The translations under genes and the position numbers were made by a program. The notes beneath the pieces were generated by a model that saw only the letters and a list, made by a program, of their open reading frames with translations, did not search any database and was not told the DNA's origin. Source: an uncultured virus (IMG/VR IMGVR_UViG_3300021140_000006) (Duplodnaviria; Heunggongvirae; Uroviricota; Caudoviricetes). Taken from it: DNA of 64,000 nucleotides. The stretch is from IMG/VR virus record IMGVR_UViG_3300021140_000006. One strand, given 5' to 3'. Below are positions 4,965 to 60,289 of this stretch, piece after piece (position 1 is the first letter of the stretch; each line of letters begins with the position of its first letter).

Positions 4965-5030
4965 GTTACTCGCGGACTCCTACATCCCAGTAACTCTAAC
5001 CATACTAACAAGAATACAAGGAGTAATCTA
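4965..5030 (+). ncRNA. Candidate cis-regulatory leader RNA, copy 1
   Basis: GTTACT-CGC-GGA/loop/TCC-C-AGTAAC, then TCTAACCATACT and AAGGAG; same architecture before three other endonuclease genes. Confidence 0.6.
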
Positions 5031-5726
5031 ATGATCAGCAAAAGTATTTATATACCGTATACATATATTTTAAAATTCAAAGTAACAGGACAATTGTATT
5101 ATGGATCCAGTTATGCAAATAGTACAAATAAAATAGCAAATCCATCTCAACTGTGGAATACGTATTTCACATCATCCAAAGAAATACACAAATTAATAAG
5201 TGAATACGGTATCGATTCTTTTGATTATCAAATAAGAAAAGTCTTTACTACTGTAGAGCAAACACTAGCGTGGGAAACTAAAATACTGACTAAATTTGAT
5301 GCTGCCGCTAATGATATGTGGATAAATAAGCATAATGGTGGAACTAAGTTTAAAAATATAGGTCGTGTTCACGATGATGAGTGGAATGAAAATATATCAA
5401 TTGCATTAAGCGGTAAAGTAAAATCAGACAATCATCGTAAAAATATATCATTAGCGGCTCAAGGTAGAGTCCCTTGGAATAAAGGAATGTCTGGTTTTGT
5501 ATACGGAAAGCAATCTGAAGAGCATACGTCATTAAGAATTTCTAATGGAAAAAAAACTATACACGAAAAGTATGGTGTGACGAACCCAAGTCAAATAGAC
5601 TGGGTTATTGAAAAAATAAAAGAAACTAAGAAAAATAAACCATATTTATTTTGTCCAATTTGTAATAAGAAATATAAATATAAATATTATTACGATTTGC
5701 ATATCAATCAATGTATAGAGGAATAG
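5031..5726 (+). CDS. Free-standing GIY-YIG/Seg-like homing endonuclease with NUMOD3-like repeats and C-terminal zinc finger
   Basis: YTY...YYG strand pair; NISxA repeats; CPIC..H..C; start moved to ATG 5031 after AAGGAG. Confidence 0.75.
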   Translation: MISKSIYIPYTYILKFKVTGQLYYGSSYANSTNKIANPSQLWNTYFTSSKEIHKLISEYGIDSFDYQIRKVFTTVEQTLAWETKILTKFDAAANDMWINKHNGGTKFKNIGRVHDDEWNENISIALSGKVKSDNHRKNISLAAQGRVPWNKGMSGFVYGKQSEEHTSLRISNGKKTIHEKYGVTNPSQIDWVIEKIKETKKNKPYLFCPICNKKYKYKYYYDLHINQCIEE

Positions 5727-5727
5727 C

Positions 5728-6237
5728 ATGAAACGTATAGTCGATAATCTTATAGCGTGGAGAATACTTTCAATGTTAGTAACTCCATTTGATAAATCTG
5801 AAGCATACAAACTGGGTATTATAGATGCTGATGGTAAAATCCTCAAAAAGCAAAACCAACTTACTACTCCAGAAGAAAAGGATGCTTACACGTATCTTCA
5901 ACGTCTAGTATTCAATCTTAAAAGATTACTCAATAAGTTACCTGGTGGAGACAAATACACCAAGAACCTTATTGCTGCTTATTTTCTAATCAAAGAATCA
6001 TACCAACATAATGACGATTCAAATTTAGAATCAAGATTTACTACATTACTTGAAACCATCGACCAAAAGAATATCATATTGGTCGAGGAAGAAATACTCG
6101 TTAATAAATTCCTCGATGAAGAAGGTGGAGTACTTCCTGCTAATAATACTTCAGGTGTTGCTAATCCCGAATTCAAATTAGGCCAAAAGAAAGTCATTAA
6201 GAGAAAAGTCAATGTTTCTACTGAATCTAATTCCTGA
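5728..6237 (+). CDS. Conserved T4-like hypothetical protein
   Basis: LVTPF..AYKLGIIDADG and LVFNLKRLL motifs. Confidence 0.65.
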   Translation: MKRIVDNLIAWRILSMLVTPFDKSEAYKLGIIDADGKILKKQNQLTTPEEKDAYTYLQRLVFNLKRLLNKLPGGDKYTKNLIAAYFLIKESYQHNDDSNLESRFTTLLETIDQKNIILVEEEILVNKFLDEEGGVLPANNTSGVANPEFKLGQKKVIKRKVNVSTESNS

Positions 6238-6793
6238 GTGGTTAACCTACCTTCTTAGTGGCATCTCATTCTTAGGACTTGTTCTAGGTGTATTGATACC
6301 AATTCCTGCTCATTACAAGATGGCTCTGTATTCTGGGTTAGGCATGTTACTATGCCTGAATTCATTTGCTATAGGAGTTTCGGTAAACGAAGCAAACTGG
6401 CAAGTAAAAGTTAAAGATATGCAAATCCAGATTGCACAACTAGAAACCAAAACTGCTGAAGTGACAACAAAGGTTGTTACTGAATATATAGAAAAAGTCA
6501 AAATAGTAGAAGGCAAAACTCATGTTATTATTAAGAAAGTTCCTGAATATATTACCAAAGAATCTGATGCTAAGTGTAGTATCAATACTGGTGCTATCGA
6601 GTTGCTCAACGCTGCCGCAGAAAACAAAGTTCCCGAATCCTCCAGAACTTCTCATGAAGGACCCTCCGATGTTAAACTCTCTACCCTTGTTGAATCCGTC
6701 AGTGGAAACTACGGTACATACTATCAAGTAGTAGAACAACTTAAATCGCTCCAAGATTGGATTAGAAAACAAAAGGATTTGAACAATGAGTGA
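6212..6793 (+). CDS. Inner-membrane spanin (Rz-like)
   Basis: N-terminal TM helices, coiled coil, IIKKVPEYIT..D.KC; contains an embedded lipoprotein ORF. Confidence 0.75.
   Translation: MFLLNLIPEWLTYLLSGISFLGLVLGVLIPIPAHYKMALYSGLGMLLCLNSFAIGVSVNEANWQVKVKDMQIQIAQLETKTAEVTTKVVTEYIEKVKIVEGKTHVIIKKVPEYITKESDAKCSINTGAIELLNAAAENKVPESSRTSHEGPSDVKLSTLVESVSGNYGTYYQVVEQLKSLQDWIRKQKDLNNE
6567..6731 (+). CDS. Outer-membrane spanin (Rz1-like), embedded in the i-spanin gene
   Basis: MLSVVSILVLSSC lipobox followed by a Pro-rich mature region, in the +1 frame. Confidence 0.75.
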   Translation: MLSVVSILVLSSCSTLPQKTKFPNPPELLMKDPPMLNSLPLLNPSVETTVHTIK

Positions 6794-7223
6794 CCATAAT
6801 TCACCATGTAATGACCTTAATAAACTTGTAACTGAAGTAGCTGTTCTGCAGAATGTAGTTTACAAGATAGATAATACAGTTGCAGAAATTGCTAAAGCAT
6901 CTTCAGAAGTATCAAGATTATTAATAGTACACGACAACAGACTAAACAATCTCGAGAATAATAATAAAGAAACTACAACTGATGTCAAGGACCTATACAA
7001 GAAAATGGAAGAAACTACTAAAGAGATTGTGGATAAGTTAGATGATATGGAATCCCGTATTGAATCTAAACTTAAAGAACATGAAGATAAATCGGATGAG
7101 TACAGAGAAGATATTTCTAACAGAATTTCTGCCTTAGAAACTTGGAAGTGGTTAGTAGTTGGAGGTAGTATAGTAATTGGATACCTTATTGATCACTCTG
7201 ATGTCCTAAAGCTATTCAAATAA
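6786..7223 (+). CDS. Coiled-coil protein with C-terminal TM helix (lysis-cassette associated)
   Basis: Heptad pattern, then LETWKWLVVGGSIVIGYL. Confidence 0.6.
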   Translation: MSDHNSPCNDLNKLVTEVAVLQNVVYKIDNTVAEIAKASSEVSRLLIVHDNRLNNLENNNKETTTDVKDLYKKMEETTKEIVDKLDDMESRIESKLKEHEDKSDEYREDISNRISALETWKWLVVGGSIVIGYLIDHSDVLKLFK

Positions 7224-7439
7224 AGCCATTAGTACTATAATACCACCAAAGTCAACTTTATACAACATTCAAATCAAAGTACTTTATAGTTTACGTAACT
7301 CCTGAATTATAAAGTACTTTCTAGTAAACACTAGTTTATTACCATTAATCGGCATTATTGCTCGAATTCATCAAAAACACTAAAATATCACGTATAACTC
7401 TTTGATTCTAAAGAGGGTAAAACACTAAATCGCGTTATT
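7223..7439 (-). repeat. Non-coding element A, diverged inverted copy of 47779-47976
   Basis: Collinear shared blocks AATAACGC, TTTTACCC, AATCAA-N2-AGTTA, ATGCC, GTTGACTT, GTATTATAGT-N-CTAATGGCTT. Confidence 0.8.
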
Positions 7440-7508
7440 CATAATAATGTTGAACAATCCTAAGCCTTCCTGTATACTTCTTTATAATAGTTCATTTGGG
7501 GACATATT

Positions 7509-7820
7509 ATGATGTGTGTTGATAAGAAGTACATTTTGAAAATTTCTTCTCAGTTGAGAAACTTCAAGGTAGTGAATGAGAATGCTTGGAGATTTAGTTG
7601 TGTTTATTGTGGAGACTCTTTGAAAGATCCAAAGAAAGCACGAGGGAATATATACCACAAGCACTATAAATTGCTTTATAAGTGTTTCAATTGTGGGATT
7701 TCAAAATCAATTCAAGAATTCATCCAGGATATGGATTCTGTGATGTTTCAGGAATATCAGTTGGATAATTATAAGGCAGGAGATGACACTATCAATTTAG
7801 AAATATTTGGAGGCAAATGA
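7509..7820 (+). CDS. gp61-like primase zinc-binding domain only (no catalytic domain)
   Basis: FSCVYCGDS.KDPKKARG...YKCFNCG matches the gp61 N-terminus; stops at 103 aa. Confidence 0.75.
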   Translation: MMCVDKKYILKISSQLRNFKVVNENAWRFSCVYCGDSLKDPKKARGNIYHKHYKLLYKCFNCGISKSIQEFIQDMDSVMFQEYQLDNYKAGDDTINLEIFGGK

Positions 7821-7925
7821 ATAATCCAATATTAGACTATCTAGTAATACCTTTGGTAATCACATTGGTAATTTTATTTACAATTATATTATAAGGAATT
7901 TTATGACAATAACAAAAGGTGACGT

Positions 7926-8921
7926 ATGAGCATTAGACTACTAACTCCTAAATCGGAATACATTGTTGATTACCCTACAGCTATAGAATTTGCTGAACAA
8001 CAGGCATCTATCATTTGGTTTCCTGATGAAATTGATGTAGAAAAGGATCTACACGATCTCAAAACCAATTGCACTGAAGCAGAATACCATGGTGTAATAT
8101 CTACCCTAAAATTATTCACATTATACGAACTCAATGTTGGTAATGATTATTGGCAAAACTATGTAAGTAAAGTGTTTCCGAGACCAGACATCCAACGTAT
8201 GGCTTCTACATTCTCTTTTATGGAGTTGGGAGTTCATGCTCCATTCTATAATAAGATTAATGAAGTGTTGGGATTGGATACGGAAGAATTCTATAACTCA
8301 TACAAAGAAGATAAAGTATTAGCTAACAGAATGAACTGGATTGCTAAAAGAACCACTAAGAAAGATACCGTATACAATGTACTTAAATCGGTCGGTGTGT
8401 TTTCTATGATCGAAGGTGCTATCCTGTATAGTTCATTTGCTTTTCTTAAACATTTCAACTCTGTAGGTAAAAATAAGTTGATTAATGTCAATGCTGGAAT
8501 CAACTTTTCAGCTATTGATGAAACTCTTCATTCTCAAGCTGGCGCGTGGTTATACCGTACTCTGGATAAAGAAGCCTTTGAAGATGATCAGTTAACCATC
8601 AGCGGAAGAGAACAGCTCAAAGAAGAACTAGAAGAAACTGCAAGAGTCATTCTCGAGCACGAATCTATTATTATTGATAAGATATTCGAGAAGGGCAATA
8701 TTAAGGGGATTACTGATAAACAATTAAAAGCGTTTGTTGAATCAAGATTGGATATTTGTTTGGAAAATTTAGGATACAAAGCAATTTTTAAGCCTACATA
8801 CAACCCAATTAAAACCTGGTTCTATAAAGACATAGATTCGACGGGAGTATTGCACGATTTTTTCAGTTCTCAAGGTTCATCATACACGAGATCGTGGAAA
8901 GAAAAATCATTCAGTTGGTAA
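7926..8921 (+). CDS. nrdB: Class Ia ribonucleotide reductase beta subunit
   Basis: WFPDE, ELGVHAPFY, EGAILYSSF, DETLH di-iron motifs; DFF near the C-terminus. Confidence 0.95.
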   Translation: MSIRLLTPKSEYIVDYPTAIEFAEQQASIIWFPDEIDVEKDLHDLKTNCTEAEYHGVISTLKLFTLYELNVGNDYWQNYVSKVFPRPDIQRMASTFSFMELGVHAPFYNKINEVLGLDTEEFYNSYKEDKVLANRMNWIAKRTTKKDTVYNVLKSVGVFSMIEGAILYSSFAFLKHFNSVGKNKLINVNAGINFSAIDETLHSQAGAWLYRTLDKEAFEDDQLTISGREQLKEELEETARVILEHESIIIDKIFEKGNIKGITDKQLKAFVESRLDICLENLGYKAIFKPTYNPIKTWFYKDIDSTGVLHDFFSSQGSSYTRSWKEKSFSW

Positions 8922-9746
8922 GGGTTTAAATTTACAATTATCAAAGTGCCATCTACCCATTATGCCTCCTTTGCCAGAAACATCGCAATAGGGGCATTTT
9001 ATAGGAGGTCTTTTAGAGCATGTGTCTTTATAGGTTTGGATTTTTCTTTCTTGAACTTCTGGATTGAGGCTTGGGTGAGTATATCCAGTATTTTGAAAAT
9101 ACGAATCATATTGGTGTGCTAACACTTCTGGATTTTTTGAGGGGTTAGCATATCCCGTTTTTTCAAAATAACTATCTGATCTCTTTTGAATAGTTTCTGG
9201 ATTTTTTGAATTATGAGTATATCCAGTATTTTGAAAATACGAATCTTTGCATTTTTGAATAATATCTGGATTTTCAAAATTAGAGTAATATCCTGTTTTC
9301 TCAAAACATTTGGTTCTTTCTGAAAGTTTCCGTTCTTTAGATTTTGGTGTTCTCATATTTAGTTTATGAGATTCTGATTTTGGTTTTCTCATATTGGATA
9401 CTGTTTTTTCGGTGAGTTTATATCCACCAACATTATTCCACTTTAGATCGCCATTATGACCATTGAGCCATTCTGGATGGTTTGCTGCATTTATTTTTGT
9501 AAGGAATTTTGTTTCCCAATATAGAGCAGAATCTTTATTGATAAATGTTTTTCGAACTTCAAAGGTGAATGAATCTTTGCTATATTCTTCTATAAGATTG
9601 GATATTATTTTTGATGAAGTGAAGTAGGTCGTCCAAAGTTGAGAAGGATGACAACCTTTTGCATATCGAACACCATAGTATCGTTGCCCTGTTGGGAGAA
9701 ATGTGATACAATAAGTGAATGGTGTATATATAGTTGTGCTGGACAT
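8907..9746 (-). CDS. Free-standing GIY-YIG/Seg-like homing endonuclease
   Basis: FTY...YYGVRY; DSYFxxTGY repeats; CPYC..RWHFDNC; start moved to ATG 9746 after AGGAG. Confidence 0.8.
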   Translation of the reverse strand: MSSTTIYTPFTYCITFLPTGQRYYGVRYAKGCHPSQLWTTYFTSSKIISNLIEEYSKDSFTFEVRKTFINKDSALYWETKFLTKINAANHPEWLNGHNGDLKWNNVGGYKLTEKTVSNMRKPKSESHKLNMRTPKSKERKLSERTKCFEKTGYYSNFENPDIIQKCKDSYFQNTGYTHNSKNPETIQKRSDSYFEKTGYANPSKNPEVLAHQYDSYFQNTGYTHPSLNPEVQERKIQTYKDTCSKRPPIKCPYCDVSGKGGIMGRWHFDNCKFKPLPTE

Positions 9747-9838
9747 AATAGTCTCCTGATTATTGATAGAATGTTTAGAGTTAGTAGGAGTGCAATCCGT
9801 GACTAACACCTTTTTGCTTTACATATAACGTATTTATA
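9747..9838 (-). ncRNA. Late promoter plus candidate leader RNA, copy 2
   Basis: TATAAATA (9838-9831), then GTTAGT-CAC-GGA/loop/TCC-T-ACTAAC-TCTAAACATTCT...AGGAG. Confidence 0.6.
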
Positions 9839-9864
9839 TAAATTAAAACTTGAGGAAATTTTAC

Positions 9865-11004
9865 ATGGTGAATGAATTATCAATTTATGAAGAATTAGGT
9901 GAAGAACGTAAACTCCTTCAAGAACAAGGATTATTACCTAACTGGTGTACTACTGCTGCATGGCAGATGCTTAAAGGTAGCTACTTGACTCCATCTCATC
10001 CAGACTTGAAATCCGTATATACAAGAGTGGCTAGTCATGCTGCTTCGTATACAAGTAATCCTGCTGAATGGGAAACTAAATTCTTCAATCTATTATGGAA
10101 CGGTTGGTTAGCAGCTTCGACTCCTGTATTGTCTAATATGGGTACTGGATTTGGTTGTCCTGTTTCTTGTTCAGGAGGAGTAGTAGGAGATTCTATTTTC
10201 TCATTCTATAACTCACAAACAGAAGCTGCTATTCTTTCAAAGAATGGATTTGGTACTTCTAGTTACTTGGGAGGTATTAGACCTAGAGGTTCTAAAATCT
10301 CGGGCATTAAAGGTAGTGCTTCTGGAGTACTTCCTGTATTCAAAGATTACGTTCAAATGTCGAGAGACGTTAGCCAAGGTTCACAACGTAGAGGAGCATG
10401 GGCTGGCTATATTGAAATTGACCACCCAGATTTCTTTGAATTAGTTAACTATATTAACAAACAACCTGATGATGCTAATATTGGTTGGAATGTTACTGAC
10501 GCGTTCATTGCTAGATTAGAAGCAGGAGATCCTGACGCAATTGAACGATATCAGAAAGCATTGAAACTTAAAATGATTACTGGTAAAGGATACTTTGAGT
10601 TCATCGATAAAGTAAATCGCCAAAATCCTCAAATGTACAAAGACTTGGGCCTTACAGTAAAGGCATCTAACTTGTGTTTATCGGGCGACACTAGAATCAA
10701 TATCAAAGGTGATATGAGTGGTGAGATTGAAGTATCTATGGAAGGTTTGAATAATTACCTAGGTAAAAATGATGATGTTGAAAATTGGAAGGTTTGGTCG
10801 TATAATGTAGAAAGTGGTGTGGGTGAGTGGAAGAAAATTACCAAGTCCGCTCAGATGAGACGTAATGCAAAACTCATGAAAATTACAGATAAACGGACTG
10901 GCAAGTTTATAAAATGTACTCCATGTCATAAGGTATTCACTGAGAATAGAGGATACGTCGAAGCAAGCCAACTTCAAGAAAACGATATTCTGCTATTGAA
11001 ATAG
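9865..11004 (+). CDS. nrdA: Ribonucleotide reductase alpha subunit N-part fused to split intein IntN
   Basis: STPVLSN, PVSC, SQGSQRRGA, then KASNL|CLSGDT; intein TPCH motif. Confidence 0.93.
   Translation: MVNELSIYEELGEERKLLQEQGLLPNWCTTAAWQMLKGSYLTPSHPDLKSVYTRVASHAASYTSNPAEWETKFFNLLWNGWLAASTPVLSNMGTGFGCPVSCSGGVVGDSIFSFYNSQTEAAILSKNGFGTSSYLGGIRPRGSKISGIKGSASGVLPVFKDYVQMSRDVSQGSQRRGAWAGYIEIDHPDFFELVNYINKQPDDANIGWNVTDAFIARLEAGDPDAIERYQKALKLKMITGKGYFEFIDKVNRQNPQMYKDLGLTVKASNLCLSGDTRINIKGDMSGEIEVSMEGLNNYLGKNDDVENWKVWSYNVESGVGEWKKITKSAQMRRNAKLMKITDKRTGKFIKCTPCHKVFTENRGYVEASQLQENDILLLK
10675..11001 (+). mobile_element. Split intein N-fragment (109 aa)
   Basis: Block A CLSGDTRI, block B CTPCHKVFT, ends GYVEASQLQENDILLLK. 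Confidence 0.9.
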
Positions 11005-11016
11005 TTCTGTGTAGTG

Positions 11017-11058
11017 AAATCTCCTTTATTATAAATACTATATCATTAAAGGAGATTT
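11017..11058 (+). promoter_or_regulatory. RBS-sequestering hairpin with a late promoter in its loop
   Basis: Perfect 12-bp inverted repeat AAATCTCCTTTA/TAAAGGAGATTT; TATAAATA at 11030-11037. Confidence 0.85.
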
Positions 11059-11059
11059 T

Positions 11060-11974
11060 ATGAATTATAAAAAATTATACGACGAATTTGTTTCACATTG
11101 CCAGAATACTGATCCTAGAAAAAGGATGTTAGAACGCAATCAACATGACTTTAGATTACAATACGATTCATTATATACAGAGGTTCATCATATAATTCCG
11201 AGATCGGTTGGTGGAACTGATATAGACACTAATTTAGTAGTATTATTGCCTGAAGAACATTTGTTTGCTCATAGATTGAGATATAAAGCCTATGGTGATA
11301 GGGGCGATTTTGTTGCAGTTAGATGTATTATAAACGGCATCAAAACTAACCCAAGGTACGGAAGCATTCCTACCATAATATCTAATAAGGTAAGATCATC
11401 TTATGCCTGGATGAAACAAAATAGTTCAGATTTTCGACACAATCATGGATGGCAAACTGAAGATGGTATAAGAAGGATTTCTGAATCAAGGAAAGACACA
11501 TTTCCAGTTAAATGTGTAATTACTGGAGATATAATGGGATCTTTTGATAAAAATCATCCAAAAATATTATCAGGTGAATGGGTTCATCATTCTAAAGGAA
11601 ATCATACATATTATAATAAGGTGACAGGTGAACGTATATATTGTTCAATAAATGATGAAAGGTTGACTGAAGATTGGAGTGGCGCTACTAGTAATACGGA
11701 TGGCGAAAATAATAGCAGGTTTAGTGGTATAACAAACGAAGAGTTTTTACAAGAATTTATACTACTCAGCAACAAGTTGCAGAATATTCCATCACTGGCA
11801 TTTTTCAGAAAGGTGTATATGTTGAAAACTGGTTTACAATTTCCAAAATCTTTGTCCAAGTATAGATTCAATTATGGAAAGGATCTATTTCCGATAGTAG
11901 AAGAACGAACTGGATACAAGCGTGAGATACATCAAAAGTGGTGTAAAGATTTAAACCCTATAGATTATATTTAA
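11060..11974 (+). CDS. HNH homing endonuclease (MobE-like) between the intein halves
   Basis: EVHHIIPRSVGG.D...NLVVL...EH..AH motif. Confidence 0.88.
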   Translation: MNYKKLYDEFVSHCQNTDPRKRMLERNQHDFRLQYDSLYTEVHHIIPRSVGGTDIDTNLVVLLPEEHLFAHRLRYKAYGDRGDFVAVRCIINGIKTNPRYGSIPTIISNKVRSSYAWMKQNSSDFRHNHGWQTEDGIRRISESRKDTFPVKCVITGDIMGSFDKNHPKILSGEWVHHSKGNHTYYNKVTGERIYCSINDERLTEDWSGATSNTDGENNSRFSGITNEEFLQEFILLSNKLQNIPSLAFFRKVYMLKTGLQFPKSLSKYRFNYGKDLFPIVEERTGYKREIHQKWCKDLNPIDYI

Positions 11975-11983: not shown

Positions 11984-12979
11984 ATGATAGCAATTGAATA
12001 TTTAGATTATGAAGAAGACGTTTATGACATATCGGTAGAAGATAATCATAATTTTTTTGCCAATGACATATTGGTACACAATTGTTCAGAAATACAATTG
12101 TTCTCTGATGACGACCATACCTTTAGTTGCGTATTATCATCAATGAATGCTTCTCTCTATGATGAGTGGAAAGATACTACTGCGGTATTTGATGCAACAG
12201 TATTTCTTGATTGTGTGAATCAAGACCTAATCAATATTGGTAGTAAAATTACTGGGATGGAAAAGGTAGTACGATTTGCTACTAAAAGCCGAGCTCTAGG
12301 ATTAGGATTGTTAGGATTCCACACATATCTCCAAGAACACAATATTGCATTTGAATCATTCGAAGCTAATCTGAAGAATACAGAAATCTTCAAACATCTT
12401 CATGATGAATCGTTAAGAGCTTCTCAATGGATGGCTTCAGCATTTGGAGAACCAGAATGGTGTAAAGGATATGGTGTAAGAAATACTCACAGAATTGCTA
12501 TTGCTCCTAACCTGAGTTCTGCTCTGATATGTGGTTCCGTTAGCCAAGGCATTGAACCAATATACAAAAACGCCTTCGTACAGAATACTGCAGCTGGAAA
12601 GATTGATCGAGTGAATCCTACCTTACTCAAACTAATGAAAGAGAAGGACGTTTATTCTGAAGAAGTAGTGAAGGACATTATCAATCATAAAGGTTCAGTA
12701 CAGCACGTTGATTGGCTTACTGACGAAGAGAAGTTAGTGTTCAAGACTGCTTTTGAAATTGACCAAACTCAGATCATTAGATTGGCTTCAGTACGTCAGA
12801 AGTATATTGATCAAGCTCAAAGTATCAATCTGTTCTTTAGTTCTGAAGAGACTGAAGAGTATATTAGTTCAGTTCATAAGATGGCATTTTTGGACCCATA
12901 CATTAAAAGTCTGTACTATATTCGATCAGAAAGTGGAGTGCAAACTAATAAATCCGAGTGCATTTCGTGCCATGGTTGA
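11984..12979 (+). CDS. nrdA: Split intein IntC (33 aa, 11984-12082) fused to ribonucleotide reductase alpha C-part
   Basis: VYDISVEDNHNFFANDILVHN|CSEI; IAPNLSS, SQGIEP, DQAQSINL, KSLYY; terminal CISC. Confidence 0.93.
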   Translation: MIAIEYLDYEEDVYDISVEDNHNFFANDILVHNCSEIQLFSDDDHTFSCVLSSMNASLYDEWKDTTAVFDATVFLDCVNQDLINIGSKITGMEKVVRFATKSRALGLGLLGFHTYLQEHNIAFESFEANLKNTEIFKHLHDESLRASQWMASAFGEPEWCKGYGVRNTHRIAIAPNLSSALICGSVSQGIEPIYKNAFVQNTAAGKIDRVNPTLLKLMKEKDVYSEEVVKDIINHKGSVQHVDWLTDEEKLVFKTAFEIDQTQIIRLASVRQKYIDQAQSINLFFSSEETEEYISSVHKMAFLDPYIKSLYYIRSESGVQTNKSECISCHG

Positions 12980-12982: not shown

Positions 12983-13222
12983 ATGAAACGAATCATTCAC
13001 ATTAACCAACACGTGATTAAAGCTAATGCTAAATCAGGAGAACGTAATCCTGTTATCACGTGTAAGACATACAAGGAGAACTTGTATGGCCATGAAGTTG
13101 ATTTTGTAAATGGGAAGGTGATATATAAGCCAGATGATCCATTATCCTGTGGTGCTAAGGTTTGGATCGAGACGGAAGATCCTGTTAAGGTTCGAACTGA
13201 AACTGGTTGGAAAACTTTATGA
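12983..13222 (+). CDS. Conserved phage hypothetical protein
   Basis: IHINQH and PLSCGAKVWIET motifs. Confidence 0.6.
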   Translation: MKRIIHINQHVIKANAKSGERNPVITCKTYKENLYGHEVDFVNGKVIYKPDDPLSCGAKVWIETEDPVKVRTETGWKTL

Positions 13223-13644
13223 AGAAATTATTTTTATTATTACTGTTAAGCTCCTCGGTTTCGGCCGAGGTTTATAACTTCCCCATCACTAGAGTCATTG
13301 ATGGGGATACTGTAGAATTCAAAGCAGAATTCTTACCCAAACCACTGAAACCTGTATTATCGCTTCGGGTATTAGGTGTTGATACTCCTGAGAAAGGATT
13401 CAGAGCTCATTGTACTATTGAAGCTAGTAAAGGTAATTCAGCTACAGAATTCACAAAACGATTGGTTGCTAGTTCTAAAGTTCATCAAGTCTCTATTAAA
13501 GAATGGGATAAATTTGGTGGACGAGTATTAGGTGACGTAATATTGGATGGCAAATTGCTATCTGAAGAATTAATTAAACAAGGCTATGCTCGACCTTACT
13601 TTGGAGAAAAGAAAGAGTCTTGGTGTAGTATAACAGGGAAGTAG
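13219..13644 (+). CDS. Thermonuclease (SNase-like) with signal peptide
   Basis: RVIDGDT, RVLGVDTPE, DKFGGRVL, LIKQGYA. Confidence 0.9.
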   Translation: MKKLFLLLLLSSSVSAEVYNFPITRVIDGDTVEFKAEFLPKPLKPVLSLRVLGVDTPEKGFRAHCTIEASKGNSATEFTKRLVASSKVHQVSIKEWDKFGGRVLGDVILDGKLLSEELIKQGYARPYFGEKKESWCSITGK

Positions 13645-13648: not shown

Positions 13649-13798
13649 ATGATAAAACAAATGTTTGATTGTGATTCATGTGAAACACAAGGAATGGTAA
13701 CTATAAGAACAGATGGCGTCGAGAAGAATGACGTTATCTATTGTCCGGTATGCGGTAGTCCTATCTTGCATGATGACGATGGCCTAGAGGACGAATGA
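13649..13798 (+). CDS. Small zinc-ribbon protein (49 aa, not in ORF track)
   Basis: CDSC...CPVCG with acidic tail; ATGA overlap with the next gene. Confidence 0.7.
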   Translation: MIKQMFDCDSCETQGMVTIRTDGVEKNDVIYCPVCGSPILHDDDGLEDE

Positions 13799-14226
13799 GT
13801 TGGACCTATAATGGTAATCCAGTGACCGAGCTACCAGATTGTGAAGGATTTGTTTACCTAATCACTAATCTGGTAGATGGTCGCCAGTATATTGGAAAGA
13901 AGCTAGCAAAGTTTGCTAAAACTTCCATCAAGACAGTCACTCTAAAGTCTGGTGAGAAAAAGAAGAAACGTATCAAAACTAAAGTTGACTCCGATTGGAG
14001 AACTTATTGGTCATCTTCCTTAGAACTCCAGAACGACGTTAAAGCACTAGGAGAAGATAAATTCACTCGTGAAATTATTCACTTCTGCCAAACCAAAGGT
14101 GAATGCTCCTATCTTGAAATGAAAGAACAGATTATTAATGAAGTACTAATTCAACCAGACAAATGGTACAATGCCTTTGTTGGTGGAAAAATACACAGAA
14201 ATCATGTACGGACATTATTCAAATGA
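13795..14226 (+). CDS. GIY-YIG family nuclease
   Basis: GFVYLITN...YIGKK, DWRTYWSSS, FTREI, WYN. Confidence 0.8.
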   Translation: MSWTYNGNPVTELPDCEGFVYLITNLVDGRQYIGKKLAKFAKTSIKTVTLKSGEKKKKRIKTKVDSDWRTYWSSSLELQNDVKALGEDKFTREIIHFCQTKGECSYLEMKEQIINEVLIQPDKWYNAFVGGKIHRNHVRTLFK

Positions 14227-40450: not shown

Positions 40451-40541
40451 GGTAGACTCCTGTTTATCTTGGAATGATTAGTGCTGGTGGGTGTTGGTAG
40501 CACCGCGACCAGCCTTTTTAGTTTATACAATATTATTTATA
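40451..40541 (-). ncRNA. Late promoter plus candidate leader RNA, copy 3
   Basis: TATAAATA (40541-40534); GCTGGT-CGC-GGTG/loop/CACC-C-ACCAGC-ACTAATCATTCC...AGGAG. Confidence 0.6.
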
Positions 40542-40838: not shown

Positions 40839-41162
40839 TTAACTTCTCCAGTTCAGTTACTCTCCAAGTCAATAAATTAATCTGACCATTATTTTGTGTA
40901 TGTCTTATCAGACTTTCATTCTGTTCATTAACAAAATCCAACCTTAACTTTTCTCTTGCTAATTCTGCTGCTTGGTTTGGTCTTGGTTTGGTCTTGGTGT
41001 ATTTTCTGGAGATACTACTATAGAAATCTTATTATCCAATTCAGTCAATTTAGTTTTGGCAGTATTCAAATCTGATACTAGGTACACAATACAGCTGAAC
41101 AGAATAGGAACTGCGGCAAATACAATCTTTTCGATGAATTCACCCTTTGTCGTTTCGCTCAT
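40825..41162 (-). pseudogene. Membrane protein gene frameshifted by an 11-bp tandem duplication
   Basis: Removing one CTTGGTTTGGT unit (40971-40998) gives a 108-aa ORF that overlaps the next start. Confidence 0.65.
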
Positions 41163-41427
41163 CTTCTTTTTCCTTATACATGAATGGTTCGACGCCTTTA
41201 AGATGAAGAACCACGTTTACTTTCTGGGTTAGCCTTAGCATATCATTATCCAACAATCTGACTCTGTCGATGAGTGCTATAAGAACAGTATTAACTTCTG
41301 ATATTACCGGCTTGACTTTAGTCGTGGTCCAAACCCACACATAATAAAGAATATACGCAATGCCTATAGTCTCGATAATAGGAAATCCATATTCATTGAT
41401 AACTTTTGCTACATCATTAAGACTCAT
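41140..41427 (-). CDS. Small membrane protein (holin-like)
   Basis: INEYGFPI TM segment, then DRVRLLDNDMLRL; paralogue of the next gene. Confidence 0.6.
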   Translation of the reverse strand: MSLNDVAKVINEYGFPIIETIGIAYILYYVWVWTTTKVKPVISEVNTVLIALIDRVRLLDNDMLRLTQKVNVVLHLKGVEPFMYKEKEDERNDKG

Positions 41428-41428: not shown

Positions 41429-41719
41429 CTAGTCTCCTCTATGATCTGATTGTTCAGAACGTGCTATTCTACTTGTATCAGGCTTCAATCCAAGAGCACT
41501 GGATACAAGAACATCAATTCTTATTAGGTCGTTCGACATTATATCGATTCTATGATCTAGCCGAATAATGATACTCGATATATTCTTGAGTGAACTTAAC
41601 GTGCCATCCAAGATAAATTTCAGAGTTAAGAAAATGAAGTATCCTGCTGCAATAGCAGAAACAATGGGGAATCCAACTTTACCAATTAAATCAAGCCAAC
41701 TAGTGATCTCGCCTTCCAT
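41429..41719 (-). CDS. Small membrane protein (holin-like)
   Basis: IGKVGFPI TM segment, then DHRIDIMSNDLIRI. Confidence 0.6.
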   Translation of the reverse strand: MEGEITSWLDLIGKVGFPIVSAIAAGYFIFLTLKFILDGTLSSLKNISSIIIRLDHRIDIMSNDLIRIDVLVSSALGLKPDTSRIARSEQSDHRGD

Positions 41720-50806: not shown

Positions 50807-53800
50807 CTAGTAGAAACTGTTTCTATTCTGGAAGAATTTTGATATTGTTGATTCAGTATTTCTAGGATTCATTGGTGGTTGTTGATTTGTTGAGTGTTGA
50901 GTAACATTATTAGTCGGAGCTGAAATGTTATTGACCACAGTAGAAGTATTACTAGCCTCTTTTGAAACTTCTGCAGATTTATCATAAACTACATTAGCAG
51001 CTTCTGGAGCAAGAGTTTTTGGTTTGATTGCTTCGGGTGCTATTTTAGTTTCTGGTTTAATTTTATCCAAGCTCAATTGTTGTGCAATTGGCTTAACTTC
51101 GCCCATAGCAATATTGGAATAAATCTCTAGTCCTTTAGATTTTGCTTCTGCTACAGCATCTTCCAACAATTCATTTTTAGTAATACTATACTTGTTGTTT
51201 TCTTTCAAATCATTATAGATCTTCTTGACATCTTCAGAATATACATTACCGATTTCAGATTGAACTTCTGGTTTACCATTAACTTCTGTTGGTTTACCAT
51301 TAACTTCTGTTGGTTTTACTACTTCTGGTTTACCATTAACTTCTGTTGGTTTTACTACTTCTGGTTTACCATTAACTTCTGGTTTACCGATTTCAGATTG
51401 AACTTCTGGTTTACCATTAACTTCTGGTTTACCGATTTCAGATTGAACTTCTGGTTTACCGATTTCAGATTGAACTTCTGGTTTACCATTAACTTCTGTT
51501 GGTTTTACTACTTCTGGTTTACCGATTTCAGATTTAGTATCTCTAGTTACTAATTTATGAGTCAATACTTCATGAAGTTTAGCGTCATCTTCTGGTTTGA
51601 ATCTTATTTTAGCATCAATGAGTTTCTTCAAATCTTCTGTTGGTAATTCTTGAATACCTTTCCAATCTAGTACTTCCGAATCACCGAAATTATACGATAT
51701 GATCTTTTTATGATGAAGATCTTGTACTACTTTCTTGCCACCTTCACCAAACGATTCATCATAAGCGTCTATAGCGGTAGATCCAACTTCATAAGCAGCT
51801 AATGCAGCAGCTGCTGGACCTGCTAATCGTAATGCCATTTTACCAGCATTCTTCAATACGGAGGCACCAGGAATCTTATTGAATACGCCTTTAGCTTTAT
51901 CAAGTATTCCACGTCCAGTAGAAGTCTTAGGTACTTCCGGTGTAGTTGGTCTAGGCGCATTAGTTGTTCTGTTTGGAAACCTTTCTTCTGGCACGACATC
52001 AGCTAAAGAAGGTGTATGATTATCATCAGTACTCATTTCTGCAACACTAGCGGCAACTGCAGTACCTAATCCTAATCGACCAAATAATCCTCTACGTCTA
52101 CGACCGTTATTTCTAGTAGGAATTGGTCTTCTATTGGTTCTATCGTTTTTAGTTTTTCTTGGTTTGTTAACATCAATATCTTTATCAGCATCATCTGGTT
52201 TTTTAGTAGGTGGTTCTTTTTTCTTGATGATTTCTTCAGTACGTTTTTTGAGTTCTTCGAGAATTAACTTTTGGACTTTGAGAGTTTCGTCTAGTAATTT
52301 ATTCTGGTCATTTGTCGAGGATAATTGATTGTCTTGGAATAACTCAGTTGATCTTGCTGTTTCCAATTTAGTTTCTATATTGGAACTAGTACTTGCATTA
52401 CTGGTAATAGCGTTGCTTGCATTATTGGTATTTGCATTACTTGCATTACTGGTAATAGCGTTGCTTGCATTATTGGTATTTGCATTGCTTGCATTATTGG
52501 TATTTGCATTACTTGCATTACTGGTAATAGCGTTGCTTGCATTATTGGTAATAGCGTTGCTTGCATTACTGGTATTTGCATTACTTGCATTACTGGTATT
52601 TGCATTACTTGCATTATTGGTAATAGCGTTGCTTGCATTATTGGTATTTGCATTGCTTGCATTATTGGTATTTGTATTGCTTGCATTATTGGTAATAGCG
52701 TTGCTTGCGTTGCTTGCATTATTTGTATTTGCATTACTTGCATTATTGGTAATAGCGTTGCTTGCATTATTTGTATTAGCGTTGCTTGCATTATTTGTAT
52801 TTGTATTGCTGATAGTACTAGCATCGGAAACTACATTACTAGAAACTAACGGGGCAATTTTATTTGATAACTTTTCTATAGTAAATTTTATCGAATCTAT
52901 AGCATTAGATAATTCTTCACAGCAATCAGTTTTTTCACATTCACATTCTTGTGAATCATCTGCAGAATCCTTATCTATTTTTACCGTAATAGGTTCGTTT
53001 TCAATTACTACTTTTAATGGTTCAAGTATGGCCAAACCATCACCTGAAATCGGATGTTCAGTTGGTGATGGTTTATCGGATGGAGGCGTCGGTTCAGTTG
53101 GTTTAGCTTTCCAAGAGCCTTCTTTGCCAAAGAATCTAAGATCTTTTTCTCTATCAGATTTCTGTGGATTGGTATATTTGTATCTTGAATCGATTTCAGA
53201 TAATCTACTACCAATTTGTTGTTGTTCTTCTCTGTACTTTTTAGCATCAGGTGAAGTTGATTTGAGGAATTCTTCTTTAGATAGAAGACCTCTATTCTCG
53301 TTCATATTTCTTTCATTCTTATTATTAAGGTATAAAAGTTTTTGTTTCTCTTTATACTGTTCTTTCAACTGCTTATCAGTTTTTACTGAACCAGCAGCTC
53401 GTTCAGTAGTAATGTACTGGTTTCTATTTCTAGCATTCTTAGAAAAAATGGATGATACGTTATTAGTTATTCCTTTGAATGTACTACCAACAGTTGTTTT
53501 ACCAGTATCATTATCCTTAAACGTATTTTTGAGTTTACCAAATGACTCTTTTAACAAATCCATACGAGTAAACATATTATGGTAAACTGGATCATTAAGT
53601 GCTTTATCCGCTACATCTACATTATGTTGAGACTTTAAAGCAGCAGATATCTTTTTAAGTTCTTCTAGCGATTTGTCTTTACTAGACTGGTCGTCCTTTT
53701 TATTGTCAGACTTTTCTTTATCTTCTACCTTAGCAACATCAGCTTCTTTGATATCTCTTTCCTTACTAGATGCCATAATAGTAGACATCTTTTCAGATAT

Positions 53801-53926
53801 ATCGGACAAGTCTTGAGCCATGCTTTGAAGTTCTATATTACTAGCATCAAGGGCATCATTGCTAATGATTGCAAGTTCTTCCAATTTTACTAAATGTTCT
53901 ATTTGTTGGTTGAGAATTTTCTTCAT
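50807..53926 (-). CDS. Tape-measure/gp29-like protein with low-complexity repeats
   Basis: 1039 aa, helical; follows gp26/gp51-like genes; C-terminal VVNNISAPTNN motif. Confidence 0.65.
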   Translation of the reverse strand: MKKILNQQIEHLVKLEELAIISNDALDASNIELQSMAQDLSDISEKMSTIMASSKERDIKEADVAKVEDKEKSDNKKDDQSSKDKSLEELKKISAALKSQHNVDVADKALNDPVYHNMFTRMDLLKESFGKLKNTFKDNDTGKTTVGSTFKGITNNVSSIFSKNARNRNQYITTERAAGSVKTDKQLKEQYKEKQKLLYLNNKNERNMNENRGLLSKEEFLKSTSPDAKKYREEQQQIGSRLSEIDSRYKYTNPQKSDREKDLRFFGKEGSWKAKPTEPTPPSDKPSPTEHPISGDGLAILEPLKVVIENEPITVKIDKDSADDSQECECEKTDCCEELSNAIDSIKFTIEKLSNKIAPLVSSNVVSDASTISNTNTNNASNANTNNASNAITNNASNANTNNASNASNAITNNASNTNTNNASNANTNNASNAITNNASNANTSNASNANTSNASNAITNNASNAITSNASNANTNNASNANTNNASNAITSNASNANTNNASNAITSNASTSSNIETKLETARSTELFQDNQLSSTNDQNKLLDETLKVQKLILEELKKRTEEIIKKKEPPTKKPDDADKDIDVNKPRKTKNDRTNRRPIPTRNNGRRRRGLFGRLGLGTAVAASVAEMSTDDNHTPSLADVVPEERFPNRTTNAPRPTTPEVPKTSTGRGILDKAKGVFNKIPGASVLKNAGKMALRLAGPAAAALAAYEVGSTAIDAYDESFGEGGKKVVQDLHHKKIISYNFGDSEVLDWKGIQELPTEDLKKLIDAKIRFKPEDDAKLHEVLTHKLVTRDTKSEIGKPEVVKPTEVNGKPEVQSEIGKPEVQSEIGKPEVNGKPEVQSEIGKPEVNGKPEVVKPTEVNGKPEVVKPTEVNGKPTEVNGKPEVQSEIGNVYSEDVKKIYNDLKENNKYSITKNELLEDAVAEAKSKGLEIYSNIAMGEVKPIAQQLSLDKIKPETKIAPEAIKPKTLAPEAANVVYDKSAEVSKEASNTSTVVNNISAPTNNVTQHSTNQQPPMNPRNTESTISKFFQNRNSFY
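51251..51533 (-). repeat. Coding tandem repeats (GKPEV with QSEI/N/VKPTE variants)
   Basis: Repeated AACTTCTGGTTTACC units. Confidence 0.9.
52391..52805 (-). repeat. Coding 24-nt tandem repeat NASNA(N/I)T(N/S), about 16 copies
   Basis: Repeated TTGCATTA(T/C)TGGTA units. Confidence 0.92.
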
Positions 53927-53940: not shown

Positions 53941-54120
53941 TTATTTGTTCTGTTGATCCCTTTTTCTTTCTTCTAAGTATTCTACTAGCATAGCTATGTA
54001 AATTTCCCTCTCGAACGGTATCATATTTTCAATATCTGACAAAGCATATTTGTGATACTGCATTAAGGCAAAGTTCAGTTTATAGAAATTTGCCAACGAG
54101 TCATGCGAGAGGGCTACTAG
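53941..54120 (-). CDS. gp51-like baseplate assembly domain in the -1 frame of gp26 (not in ORF track)
   Basis: LVALSHDSLANFYKLNFALMQYHKYALSDIENMIPFEREIY; first ATG only at 54063. Confidence 0.8.
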   Translation of the reverse strand, partial: LVALSHDSLANFYKLNFALMQYHKYALSDIENMIPFEREIYIAMLVEYLEERKRDQQNK

Positions 54121-54830: not shown

Positions 54831-54832
54831 AA

Positions 54833-55995: not shown

Positions 55996-56003
55996 AACTT
56001 TCC

Positions 56004-56756: not shown

Positions 56757-56791
56757 AAAGGTTCCTTAATTATTCACTCATTCTATTTATA

Positions 56792-57235: not shown

Positions 57236-57241
57236 AATTCC

Positions 57242-57258
57242 TATTTATTATATAAATA
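57242..57258. promoter_or_regulatory. Back-to-back late promoters
   Basis: AATAAATA on minus and TATAAATA on plus between divergent gp4 and gp48. Confidence 0.8.
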
Positions 57259-57289
57259 ATACTAATTATGTATTACTACGAGAATACCA

Positions 57290-58357: not shown

Positions 58358-58914
58358 TGTACTTCGATAACTTTGATAAGATATACTACGATTTTGAGAT
58401 CAATGGTAAGACTCAGAAATCTATCATGACTAATATTATGAAGAATGTTAGAATAAGAAAAGAAGTCTTATCTAATATTACTCTTTACGACCAATACATT
58501 ATTCGTGATGGTGAGTCTCCAGAATTCATTGCTGAAAAGGTATATGGCAAACCAGAATACCATTGGGCAATTATGTTAGCTAACGATATGTATGACTACT
58601 TGAATGATTTTCCACTAGCAGAAAGATCAATGCCTAAAATGATATCAGACAAGTATGGAGAGGATCACGTGTATGATGTTCATCACTATCAAGCCACTAT
58701 AGATGGTCAGATATTTATAGTATCTCAGGACCCAGGTGGAGTAAGTCGAAGTACTTATTCTAATATGGCCTGGAATAACGAAGAACCTAATCCATATGTC
58801 GTTGCGGTATCTAATTCAGACTACGAGTACTCAGTAAACGAAAGTAAAAGGGTAATCAAGATAATTTCTCCTACAATAATTGAACAAGTGGCAGCAGAAT
58901 TGAGTAAATTATAA
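58357..58914 (+). CDS. 53: Baseplate wedge gp53
   Basis: MYF..F, DGESPE.IA.KVYG...YHWAI.LAN, HHY, NESKR.IKI. Confidence 0.9.
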   Translation: MYFDNFDKIYYDFEINGKTQKSIMTNIMKNVRIRKEVLSNITLYDQYIIRDGESPEFIAEKVYGKPEYHWAIMLANDMYDYLNDFPLAERSMPKMISDKYGEDHVYDVHHYQATIDGQIFIVSQDPGGVSRSTYSNMAWNNEEPNPYVVAVSNSDYEYSVNESKRVIKIISPTIIEQVAAELSKL

Positions 58915-60188
58915 TGTCAGAAATTACTACAGATTTACAATATGCTGGCGATGTTAATATCGAATTCATAGAGATTATATCATCAAAACTCAACTCATTG
59001 AATATAAGAAACCAAGTCGTATCACTTAACATATATGAAGATATATTTTCACCATTTATTACTGGTACTATAGTAGTTAAGGATGCTCTCGATCTTGTTA
59101 ACTTCTTTCCGTTGGTAGGTGATGAAACTATAAAGATAAAACTATCGACTCCAGGATTTACTGATAAGAAAGGTATCATTGATTTAAACTGTAAAATCTA
59201 TAAAATGTCTAATCGAGAAATGATTGGTAATCGTGTAGTTGGGTACATGCTTCATTTCATTTCATCTGAAGCCATCATGGATCTGAACTTGAAATTGAGT
59301 AAAGCATATACTGGTAATATTAGTGATATTGTAGCATCTATTCTTACTGAATGTAGTATAAGTGATCCAGAAAGATTCCATATAGAACCAACAATCAATG
59401 CAGTAACTTATGTTTCTAATTATTGGTCTCCCGTCAAGAATCTAAATTATCTTGCTGAACATGCTATTAGTAATCACAACTCACCAACATTCTTGTTCTT
59501 TGAGAATCGAAATGGACTGAACTTTGTTTCATTAGGAGAACTTTATACCTATCCGGTAGTAAGAAACTTCATCTGTAATGATTATTCAAGAGACTATATT
59601 CCTGCTTCTAATGGTTCGATAAGAAATATTGAGAAGGATTTCAGTCAGGTTATTGATGTCAATATTCCAGTAGCATTTGATTACATAGATAGAATTACTA
59701 ATGGAGCATTTGCTTCTACTTTGATTACTCATGATATTACAACCAAGACTTACAATTATGCCGGGTTCGATTTCCTAAAAGATTATGAGGATGACAAGAG
59801 GCTTAACAAGTATCCATTGATTAGCAAGAATATCCTACATTCTCCTGCTGCAGCAATTGCTACTATTCACAAAGCTAATGGAGTACTTCCTGGTAATAAT
59901 GATATTACGAATTCTAAGATATTCCAGAAGAGAAGATCATTGTTGACTTTGGCCGATAGTGCTAAGATTGAAATTACTGTATTGGGTAGAACTGATTATA
60001 CTGTTGGCCAAAAGATTAACGTATACTTCAATCAAATAAAACCTATCGATAAAGAAGACAAAGATATTGACGACTTGGTATTTTCTGGTGACTATATTAT
60101 TTCTTCTATTAAGCACTTTATTGATAGAACATCTCACAAGTGCATTTTCGAGCTCATTAAAGACTCGACGATGTGTCAGACAACATAA
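58914..60188 (+). CDS. Baseplate hub gp27-like tail protein
   Basis: IYEDIFSPFITG, FLFFEN, SGDYIISSIKH, ELIKDS; position between gp53 and gp5. Confidence 0.75.
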   Translation: MSEITTDLQYAGDVNIEFIEIISSKLNSLNIRNQVVSLNIYEDIFSPFITGTIVVKDALDLVNFFPLVGDETIKIKLSTPGFTDKKGIIDLNCKIYKMSNREMIGNRVVGYMLHFISSEAIMDLNLKLSKAYTGNISDIVASILTECSISDPERFHIEPTINAVTYVSNYWSPVKNLNYLAEHAISNHNSPTFLFFENRNGLNFVSLGELYTYPVVRNFICNDYSRDYIPASNGSIRNIEKDFSQVIDVNIPVAFDYIDRITNGAFASTLITHDITTKTYNYAGFDFLKDYEDDKRLNKYPLISKNILHSPAAAIATIHKANGVLPGNNDITNSKIFQKRRSLLTLADSAKIEITVLGRTDYTVGQKINVYFNQIKPIDKEDKDIDDLVFSGDYIISSIKHFIDRTSHKCIFELIKDSTMCQTT

Positions 60189-60200
60189 TATGCCAACTTT

Positions 60201-60289
60201 TATAAATACATATAGTACAAAAAGCTACTCGCGATGTTACAAGCATCCAGTAGCACTAATCATTCTTCAAGACAATTATAGGAATTATC
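60201..60289 (+). ncRNA. Late promoter plus candidate leader RNA, copy 4
   Basis: TATAAATA; GCTACT-CGC-GATG/loop/CATC-C-AGTAGC-ACTAATCATTCT...AGGA. Confidence 0.6.

Follow-up and report, generated by a model that had tools for sequence, protein, structure and literature searches.

What do four homing endonuclease genes, dispersed over one phage genome, share in front of their start codons, and on which strand is it read? The question is raised by a 64,000-nucleotide stretch from an uncultured virus (IMG/VR record IMGVR_UViG_3300021140_000006), referred to below as the window, which is DNA of a T4-like freshwater phage with a G+C content of 35%. Four genes of the GIY-YIG type in this window are each preceded by a short structured leader, for which a preliminary description, made from the letters alone, had proposed a covarying module that travels with endonuclease genes. 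This proposal is borne out by at least 126 viral stretches, in nearly all of which the module stands 5' of such genes; the leader module is real and widespread. We argue below that it is reasonably likely to be the small gene of an antisense RNA.

The leader and its four copies in the window

Two of the genes encode SegE-type GIY-YIG proteins, namely gene 1 (5031-5726, + strand; 231 amino acids) and gene 2 (8907-9746, - strand; 279 amino acids, with an additional DUF7487), which lies between nrdB and nrdA. The other two are Seg-like: gene 3 (39692-40450, -; 252 amino acids) contains NUMOD3 repeats, and gene 4 (60290-61072, +; 260 amino acids), situated between baseplate genes, contains NUMOD3. 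Upstream of each lies a hairpin, here called P1, at 4965-4994 (+) in copy 1, 9807-9780 (-) in copy 2, 40513-40483 (-) in copy 3 and 60224-60254 (+) in copy 4. The hairpin of copy 1 is built of 6 base pairs (bp), a bulge, one G-C pair, a second bulge, 3 bp and a loop of 8 nucleotides (nt). The bulge reads CGC/C in three copies and CAC/T in the copy at 9807-9780. All elements listed in the preliminary description, that is, the stems, the asymmetric bulges, the WCTAAHCATWY tail, the AGGA(G) box and the ATG-NNC-AGC start, were found in place.

In the sense direction, the late promoter sequence TATAAATA precedes copy 2 (9831-9838, -), copy 3 (40534-40541, -) and copy 4 (60201-60208, +) by 23, 20 and 15 nt, which agrees with the spacing of 15-23 nt reported for three copies before; the copy at 4965 has only TAATAAAT upstream and no full TATAAATA. 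Across the copies, the sense TATAAATA lies 3 to more than 40 nt upstream of P1, i.e. outside the hairpin and its 5' arm. The distance from P1 to the ATG is 22-38 nt, with the Shine-Dalgarno sequence (SD) outside P1, and since neither SD nor AUG lies inside the hairpin, P1 was rightly set apart from the SD-sequestering hairpins of T-even phages. Perfect TATAAATA sequences are not enriched in the window (13 per 64 kb versus 10.3 expected from shuffled sequence), and five of the 13 belong to endonuclease modules. Late promoters in this clade may follow a looser consensus than TATAAATA; NNTAAATA variants are found upstream of many module copies.

Three further readings of the leader were tried and rejected. 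The helix of 11-12 bp is not tRNA-like, as ARAGORN reported no tRNA and the loops are unlike a T-loop; a pairing of the loop with the SD in the sense strand was seen in copy 1 only and is absent in copies 3 and 4; and a pairing of sense promoter RNA with codons 5-7 gives an AU-only helix of 8 bp, which shows no compensation where the codons vary.

Covariation and distribution

The four copies were used to build a covariance model, which, when run over both strands of the window, scored them at 53.8-58.5 bits (56.4 bits for copy 1) and the next best site at 9.7 bits. Model building and a search of phage contigs, both recommended in the preliminary description, thus yielded exactly four copies in the window and a large family outside it. 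The family was collected from IMG/VR with a pattern in which the bulge core TCGCG and the tail CTAAHCAT were fixed and the outer stem was left free; at least 126 stretches matched, and the matches listed comprised 71 distinct 50-mers. Among 70 representative loci drawn from the matches listed and searched with the model, all but two (L052 and L090) were found again. Two sets are used in the following: 72 distinct instances, which are filtered since perfectly complementary outer stems were required of them, and a model-derived alignment of 66 distinct rows (A3), the sole set free of this outer-stem filter.

In A3, 99.3% of the 594 stem cells of P1 are paired, versus only 32-49% when the registers are slid against each other. 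Two-sided changes occur at seven of the nine P1 pairs (153 cells), and none of 500 shuffles was as good, so that the stem differences which had been called compensatory on the basis of four copies prove to be so in 66 relatives. The pattern used for IMG/VR gave 69 matches in 596 Gb of prokaryote genomes, only three of them with a complementary outer stem, and two of these three are true copies on short metagenome-bin contigs. Searches of whole contigs found the motif in all 50 viral contigs already known to carry it, where as many as 8 copies were counted in 74 kb, and in four of the five large contigs searched.

Named phages and named families gave a different result. Nothing significant was returned by a model search of the Pelagibacter phages HTVC008M and Mosig, the Synechococcus phages S-CREM1 and ACG-2014d, and S-PM2 (best E 0.22), and blastn with two of the leaders found no related leader in GenBank phages. 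Rfam gave no match at the gathering score in the window and none at E ≤1 in the loci of ten relatives (6349 nt), in line with the earlier remark that the module was not recognised as a named family.

As an observation aside, 22 nt of the inner hairpin of copy 3 (40483-40504) are identical to part of an intergenic hairpin common in lambdoid phages (E 0.09), which in phage mEp460 (L166, 598-631) has a GGCTGG/CCAGCC outer stem, too. This identity is probably due to chance.

Downstream genes and the constrained reading frame start

Nearly all copies of the module stand 5' of homing endonuclease genes, and these genes are of unrelated types, GIY-YIG as well as HNH. An ATG-NNN-AGY follows within 90 nt downstream in 69 of the 72 distinct instances, and 35 of the 47 longer products match endonuclease PHROGs at E ≤1e-8 (Seg-like phrog_314, HNH phrog_655, as well as phrog_3339, phrog_12131, phrog_12324, phrog_10820 and phrog_1271); matches of the products in Pfam are to NUMOD3, DUF7487, SegE_GIY-YIG, GIY-YIG and HNH. 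The partners are not confined to Seg-like GIY-YIG genes, as members of the HNH family also carry the module. Autoregulation by the endonuclease, one of the early suggestions, is unlikely since the enzymes preceded by the module belong to two nuclease superfamilies or more and differ in their DNA-binding parts. The module is absent from three further endonuclease-like genes of the window (11060-11974, 13207-13644 and 13795-14226).

Every product starts with M-x-S-x-x-[I/T]-Y. In comparison with the module-free window gene at 11060, a module-bearing member of the HNH family has an N-terminal extension of 16 residues, with its residue 18 aligning to residue 2 of the window gene, and this argues that the heptapeptide is part of the module and not of the enzymes. 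The nucleotides themselves are constrained: 65 of 67 copies use AGC as codon 3 (versus 4% of the Ser codons in gene bodies), the third base of codon 2 is C in most copies (versus ~12% C at third positions in gene bodies), the third base of codon 5 is T in 65 of 67, and codon 7 is TAT in 67 of 67 (versus 76% in gene bodies). Conservation at synonymous sites spans the first seven codons and ends abruptly at +21/22. The preliminary description had therefore delimited the module correctly as regards leader and hairpin, but had overlooked a second helix and the 21-22 nt that reach into the open reading frame (ORF). Within the family, identical hairpin loops are combined with different outer stems, and one and the same block of spacer plus start with different hairpins. 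No conserved element was found after the stop codons, where the commonest 8-mer is present in seven flanks.

A second helix connects the tail with the start codon

Position H of the tail CTAAHCAT, which is variable, covaries with the first base of codon 2, the combinations being A-T (35), T-A (24), A·C (6) and C·A (2). The mutual information of this pair is 0.96 bits, with 0.38 bits for the next best pair; the two positions are each other's best partners, and none of 10000 permutations equalled them. Together with the invariant CAT/ATG and CT/AG, the covarying pair makes up a helix, P2, between the tail and the start region. The tail strand of copy 1, CTAACCAT (4996-5003), pairs with ATGATCAG at 5031-5038. 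The one copy with G in the tail that was found in the viral collection begins with ATG CCC, matching the pairing prediction. Further cognate complementarity around the tail and start pair was not found in these copies (class A) beyond the covarying pair.

A second class of relatives (class B), found by the model search and not by the pattern, has YCAGC upstream of the ATG (…ATCAGC ATG AAT ATT TAT) and a tail without CAT. Here, the four inner pairs of P2 have been rewritten jointly (TACT/AGTA, TGTC/GACA, TGCC or CGCT/AGCA, and others); over 8 rows and 32 cells, 27 are Watson-Crick and the remaining 5 are C·A in the sense strand, which corresponds to G-U in the antisense strand. Where TTTAA occurs, it is paired with TCAAC in two of two cases. 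The YCAGC-5 nt-TATTTAT block of class B lies partly upstream of the ATG, with its spacing unchanged. P2 is real.

The strand that folds

Covariation of Watson-Crick pairs is the same on either strand, and it is the exceptions that differ. Read in the sense direction, P2 consists of 4 bp, a 2x2 loop (A opposite C or U) and 2 bp, with a mean pair probability of ~0.2 that exceeds 0.5 in only 9 of 67 copies. Read in the antisense direction, it is an uninterrupted helix of 8 bp, CUGRDCAU with AUGHUUAG, in which 528 of 528 cells (66 distinct rows) are standard pairs (in order: CG; UA; GU 60 and AU 6; GU 54 and AU 12; AU 34, UA 24, GU 6 and UG 2; CG; AU; UA); two of these antisense pairs are A·C mismatches in the sense strand in most copies. 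P1 behaves likewise, as all four non-standard cells among its 594 are A·C in sense and G-U in antisense, and three further relatives (L198, L199 and L235) have sense A·C exceptions, too.

The predicted energies point in the same direction. The minimum free energy of the antisense strand is the lower one in 67 of 67 copies (mean -22.27 versus -14.52 kcal/mol), and in 62 of 67 pairing takes in all 8 nt that follow the first G, so that the antisense minimum-energy fold opens with a helix at its 5' terminus. RNAalifold predicts both helices for the antisense strand (-20.35) and the hairpin alone for the sense strand (-14.14). When only the helices are counted, the energies of the two strands are nearly equal (-10.5 versus -10.8). 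The strand that folds is thus probably the antisense strand, so that the conserved structure fits the strand opposite to the target gene, as is expected of a cis-antisense RNA. The earlier reading as a leader of the sense strand is probably wrong on the strand: the asymmetry between G-U and A·C, the 8-bp helix found in antisense only, the energies and an 8-mer at fixed spacing, described below, favour an antisense transcript.

Anatomy of the predicted antisense RNA

The explanation that we favour, with some confidence, is that each module encodes a small cis-antisense RNA of ~80 nt and overlaps a free-standing homing endonuclease gene at the latter's 5' end. A 'partner ncRNA' was among the early guesses, and its core, a non-coding RNA, would stand; what appears more probable now is the specific form of an antisense RNA. 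Transcription would begin from an 8-mer resembling a T4-type late promoter (the complement of codons 5-8), after a 5-nt spacer, at a conserved G opposite codon 3. The RNA would then form a 5' stem-loop, composed of the 8-bp base CUGRDCAU/AUGHUUAG, an upper stem and an apical loop with UCC(U) complementary to the SD, and, one base after the 3' strand of the 8-bp helix, would end, in the manner of an intrinsic terminator, with P1' (carrying two bulged G on the antisense strand) and a U-rich run.

The complement of +15 to +22 is TATAAATA in 22 of 67 copies, TATAAGTA in 15, AATAAATA in 7 and TATATATA in 6, with the core ATAAATA in 34 of 67. In class A and class B alike, this 8-mer is followed by a fixed 5 nt and then by the conserved G, which lies opposite the C of AGC. 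A T4 late promoter TATAAATA sits at -13 to -6, and from this geometry we take the conserved G to be the expected transcription start. The upper stem is more stable in the antisense strand in 59 copies and in the sense strand in two, and the apical loop displays an anti-SD CC/UCC in 46 of 67 predicted folds, those of all four window copies included. After the hairpin, the antisense strand has at least 5 T within 8 nt in 49 of 72 instances and a T-run of at least 5 in 36 of 72.

Applied to the window, the predicted RNA of copy 1 would span 4959-5039 (-), from the G opposite C+9 of the ORF (5039) through P2' and P1' to a U-run complementary to the A-run at 4959-4964, and its proposed promoter, a perfect TATAAATA at 5045-5052 (-), falls on codons 5-8, with 5 nt between it and the conserved G downstream. 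For copy 2, the predicted RNA is placed at 9738-9815 (+), with P2' formed by 9739-9746 and 9771-9778, P1' at 9780-9807 and the U-run at 9811-9815; both domains are present in its minimum-energy fold, and opposite codons 5-8 lies the promoter-like 8-mer TATATATA (9725-9732, +), which has one mismatch to TATAAATA. The corresponding RNA of copy 3 would occupy 40442-40519 (+), with P2' of 40443-40450 and 40474-40481, P1' at 40483-40513, a U-run at 40515-40519 and a fold of -30.1 kcal/mol (z -2.91), and that of copy 4 is predicted at 60219-60298 (-), with P2' of 60290-60297 and 60256-60263, P1' at 60224-60254 and a U-run opposite 60219-60223.

Several features of the leader would find an explanation in such an RNA. 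The A-tract upstream of P1 would be the U-run of the antisense terminator, the shared heptapeptide the footprint of the antisense promoter and the 5' end of the RNA, and the sharp edge of conservation at +22 the upstream edge of that promoter. By pairing with the endonuclease mRNA over the SD and, in most copies, over the start codon, the antisense RNA would keep translation of a DNA-cutting enzyme low or delayed; protection of the mRNA by the antisense RNA is conceivable, too. The two convergent late promoters, ~100 bp apart, may in addition interfere with each other.

A number of observations weigh against an antisense RNA gene. A perfect TATAAATA is found on the antisense strand in only about a third of the copies (22 of 67), and in its place TATATATA or GATATATA stands in three of the four copies of the window, so that these promoters are putative; a good U-run is missing in about a third of the copies as well. 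A simple scan for terminators passed over the hairpins of copies 1 and 2, and a plain terminator gives no reason for the two conserved bulges. The strand asymmetry has its exceptions, as the terminal pair is G·T in sense in one relative (L185), and the loop-closing pair of P1 is mixed, with 8 antisense U-G versus 5 C·A (equal to sense U-G). It should also be noted that the family was sampled with a fixed core TCGCG and a fixed tail CTAAHCAT, and the 72 instances additionally with perfect outer stems. Finally, contigs from one freshwater metatranscriptome study, which is unstranded, cover 4500-10500; an antisense transcript was not seen among them, the contigs carrying no information on strand, ends or level. 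In one run, a single contig stops at 5028, with reduced depth further on, which is an isolated, weak hint on which nothing is built here.

Alternative explanations

Were the module a 5' leader of the sense strand after all, its hairpin would be the site of a common trans-acting protein or a 5' stabiliser, and a weak pairing of the tail with the start codon (HCAU:AUGD) would damp translation. We regard this as unlikely, even though P1 folds in the sense RNA too, with the similar helix-only energy given above, and the covariation of the tail with +4 is Watson-Crick on either strand. In 17 of the 72 instances only 3-5 nt separate the sense TATAAATA from the hairpin, so that the latter would be nearly 5'-terminal on the late mRNA, and leader structures are described as controlling endonuclease genes of the T4 family in the accessible part of a review (PMC3014915). 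What a sense leader fails to account for is that P2 would be interrupted, with its low pair probability, and is not predicted by RNAalifold, that the stem exceptions are A·C and not G-U, and that only C or U is found opposite the two A's of the tail, just as pairing of G or A with U on the other strand would need; the synonymous conservation from +10 to +22 and its sharp end are left unexplained, too. Both strands may be functional.

Far less probable is a recombination cassette that acts at the DNA level, comparable to the PeSLs of T4-like phages, in which a block of ~110 bp would serve as a crossover point for swapping endonuclease bodies or flanks, and its structure would be a by-product. 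The mixing of the block and of hairpin parts among copies, the fusion of the module to unrelated endonuclease bodies and the 16-residue extension of the module-bearing HNH member relative to the module-free window gene would all suit such a cassette, and the accessible part of the work on PeSLs describes these as composite promoter and terminator motifs that mediate exchange (PMC4122927). Homology as such, however, needs neither covarying arms whose sequence drifts nor a long-range compensating pair, and a conserved 3' partner was not found after the stop codons; it is more plausible that the shared block has led to the shuffling. At the very bottom of our ranking, if by little, stands a plain terminator of opposite-strand transcription without any regulatory RNA, which would act, for example, on transcripts running from nrdB towards nrdA across copy 2. 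Copies 2 and 3 are indeed oriented opposite to their neighbours, so that read-through would meet a hairpin and a U-run, and U-richness after the hairpin is the common state (49 of 72), but copies 1 and 4, which have the same orientation as their neighbours, keep the whole module, and the 5' stem-loop, the anti-SD loop and the fixed 5-nt spacing to the 8-mer would have no explanation.

Returning to the antisense RNA gene, a bolder extension can be put forward tentatively, and we are rather doubtful about it as a whole. The module could be a portable control cassette, captured repeatedly by unrelated endonuclease families and consisting of two late promoters that face each other plus an antisense RNA, the promoter of the latter being written into the shared seven-residue N-terminal peptide. 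As the antisense RNAs have their conserved parts in common and differ in stems and loops, those of a single phage, which number up to 8 in 74 kb, could make up a network. If true, this network could tune each endonuclease separately and could silence incoming endonuclease genes with the same cassette in mixed infections, amounting to a copy-number or competitor control of homing elements, comparable to the multicopy inhibition of IS10.

Further features of the window

The single-strand-binding protein encoded in the window has 51% identity to that of Pelagibacter phage HTVC008M and ~50% to those of cyanomyoviruses, and megablast with 6 kb against 50,697 GenBank phage records found no close relative. 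The gene for the large ribonucleotide reductase subunit, nrdA, is in two pieces (9850-11004 and 11984-12979), between which lies the HNH-family endonuclease gene at 11060-11974 (phrog_655). This gene has a classic hairpin (~11011-11059) that encloses the SD, with TATAAATA in its loop, and the layout of a split nrdA plus an endonuclease resembles mobE/nrdA of Aeh1 and the 'fractured genes'. Directly after nrdA follow two small endonuclease-like genes without the module, at 13207-13644 (phrog_452) and 13795-14226 (phrog_447, with GIY-YIG-type matches), and a small CxxC-rich ORF lies between them. Within endonuclease gene 2, 138 nt (9076-9213) are skipped by contigs of two of three metatranscriptome runs; the skipped part is bordered by 32 nt that can be aligned at either flank, and the difference is a repeat-number variant of the C-terminal DNA-binding array.

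Elsewhere, two adjoining small paralogues (41140-41427 and 41429-41719, -) both match phrog_18771, a family of unknown function. A 1039-amino-acid ORF (50807-53926, -) between a gp32-like gene and the baseplate hub has a single and weak family match, of residues 808-892 to phrog_31248. The ORFs at 6786-7223 and 7509-7820 both match phrog_451, the second one also a primase PHROG, and the ~290 nt between them hold no listed gene; this may be a split or decayed gene.

Comparison with known systems and significance

Free-standing homing endonucleases are dangerous guests of a phage genome, since they cut DNA. To our knowledge, control of homing endonucleases in T4 is known only in the form of simple mRNA hairpins and one case of autorepression, and a single antisense RNA, its function unknown, is known in a cyanophage. 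Outside phages, a close known case is RNA-OUT of IS10/Tn10, where an outward promoter inside the 5' end of the transposase gene produces a short stem-loop antisense RNA that covers SD and start codon. The window module would resemble it as a selfish element in which an antisense RNA faces the gene's own promoter and limits translation, and differs from it in serving homing endonucleases and not a transposase; RNA-OUT is bacterial, depends on sigma-70 and consists of a single stem-loop without a separate terminator hairpin.

Among phages, the hairpins of I-TevI, mobE and segB (T4, Aeh1) and of Vsr-like genes of the 'fractured genes' sequester the SD and often hold TATAAATA, according to the accessible parts of the two sources (PMC2677866, PMC3014915). 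The likeness lies in post-transcriptional control of an endonuclease beside a late promoter; the T-even and marine phage elements are one sense hairpin that includes SD or AUG, whereas in the window module P1 lies upstream of the SD, and it is the opposite strand that the structure suits. PMC2677866 shows motifs in its Supplementary Figure S4 that are unrelated to the module in sequence. PeSLs, as far as the accessible part of their description goes, are blocks of an early promoter plus a stem-loop that are repeated in T4-like genomes and tied to modular exchange (PMC4122927). They share with the module the character of short, repeated promoter-plus-stem-loop composites, and exchange of the PeSL type may explain the mosaicism of the module. 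Their promoters are early ones, they flank small variable genes, and neither a tie to endonucleases nor an antisense RNA or long-range helix is described in that part of the paper; the module, with promoters of the late type, does not share the PeSL arrangement of an early, sigma-70 type promoter and a terminator between small variable genes.

A catalogue from 2023 of more than 10,000 candidate viral RNA structures contains, in its accessible part, unnamed candidates within 25 bp of GIY-YIG or HNH genes, for example DNAVirus_227 and DNAVirus_8080 (PMC10690425). The P1 hairpin may be among them, the catalogue being available here as a listing and not as sequences. A review of 2010 (PMC3014915) says that functional characterisation of any small regulatory RNA was still lacking for T4. 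A search of full-text literature for antisense RNA together with homing endonucleases led only to the literature on CfrI of cyanophage S-PM2 (Millard et al. 2010, ISME J), an expressed antisense RNA described, in the accessible parts of two papers, over the start of the F-CphI homing endonuclease gene (PMC2984593, PMC5931967). In the GenBank annotation of S-PM2, CfrI lies opposite F-CphI and runs from 58 nt inside the gene across the leader into psbA. The model gave no match in S-PM2 at E up to 5, and the S-PM2 sequence at the expected place contains no P1/P2 motif and no TATAAATA, so that homology of the two was not found.

If confirmed, antisense control would be a general and transferable solution for homing endonucleases in environmental T4-like phages, and the module would be a clear example of a protein N-terminus that is dictated by an overlapping non-coding gene. 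The module is compact and easily synthesised, and defined compensatory mutations can be made in it. CfrI remains the closest parallel: in both cases, a T4-like aquatic phage would have an RNA antisense to a free-standing endonuclease gene, which starts within the first codons, crosses the ribosome-binding region and ends upstream. CfrI is, however, ~200-225 nt long, reaches psbA, is confined to a single locus and has an unknown function, whereas the window module is portable across endonuclease families. It is this portability, together with the imprint of a shared N-terminal peptide on the proteins concerned, that probably sets the module apart from the cis-antisense RNAs known so far.

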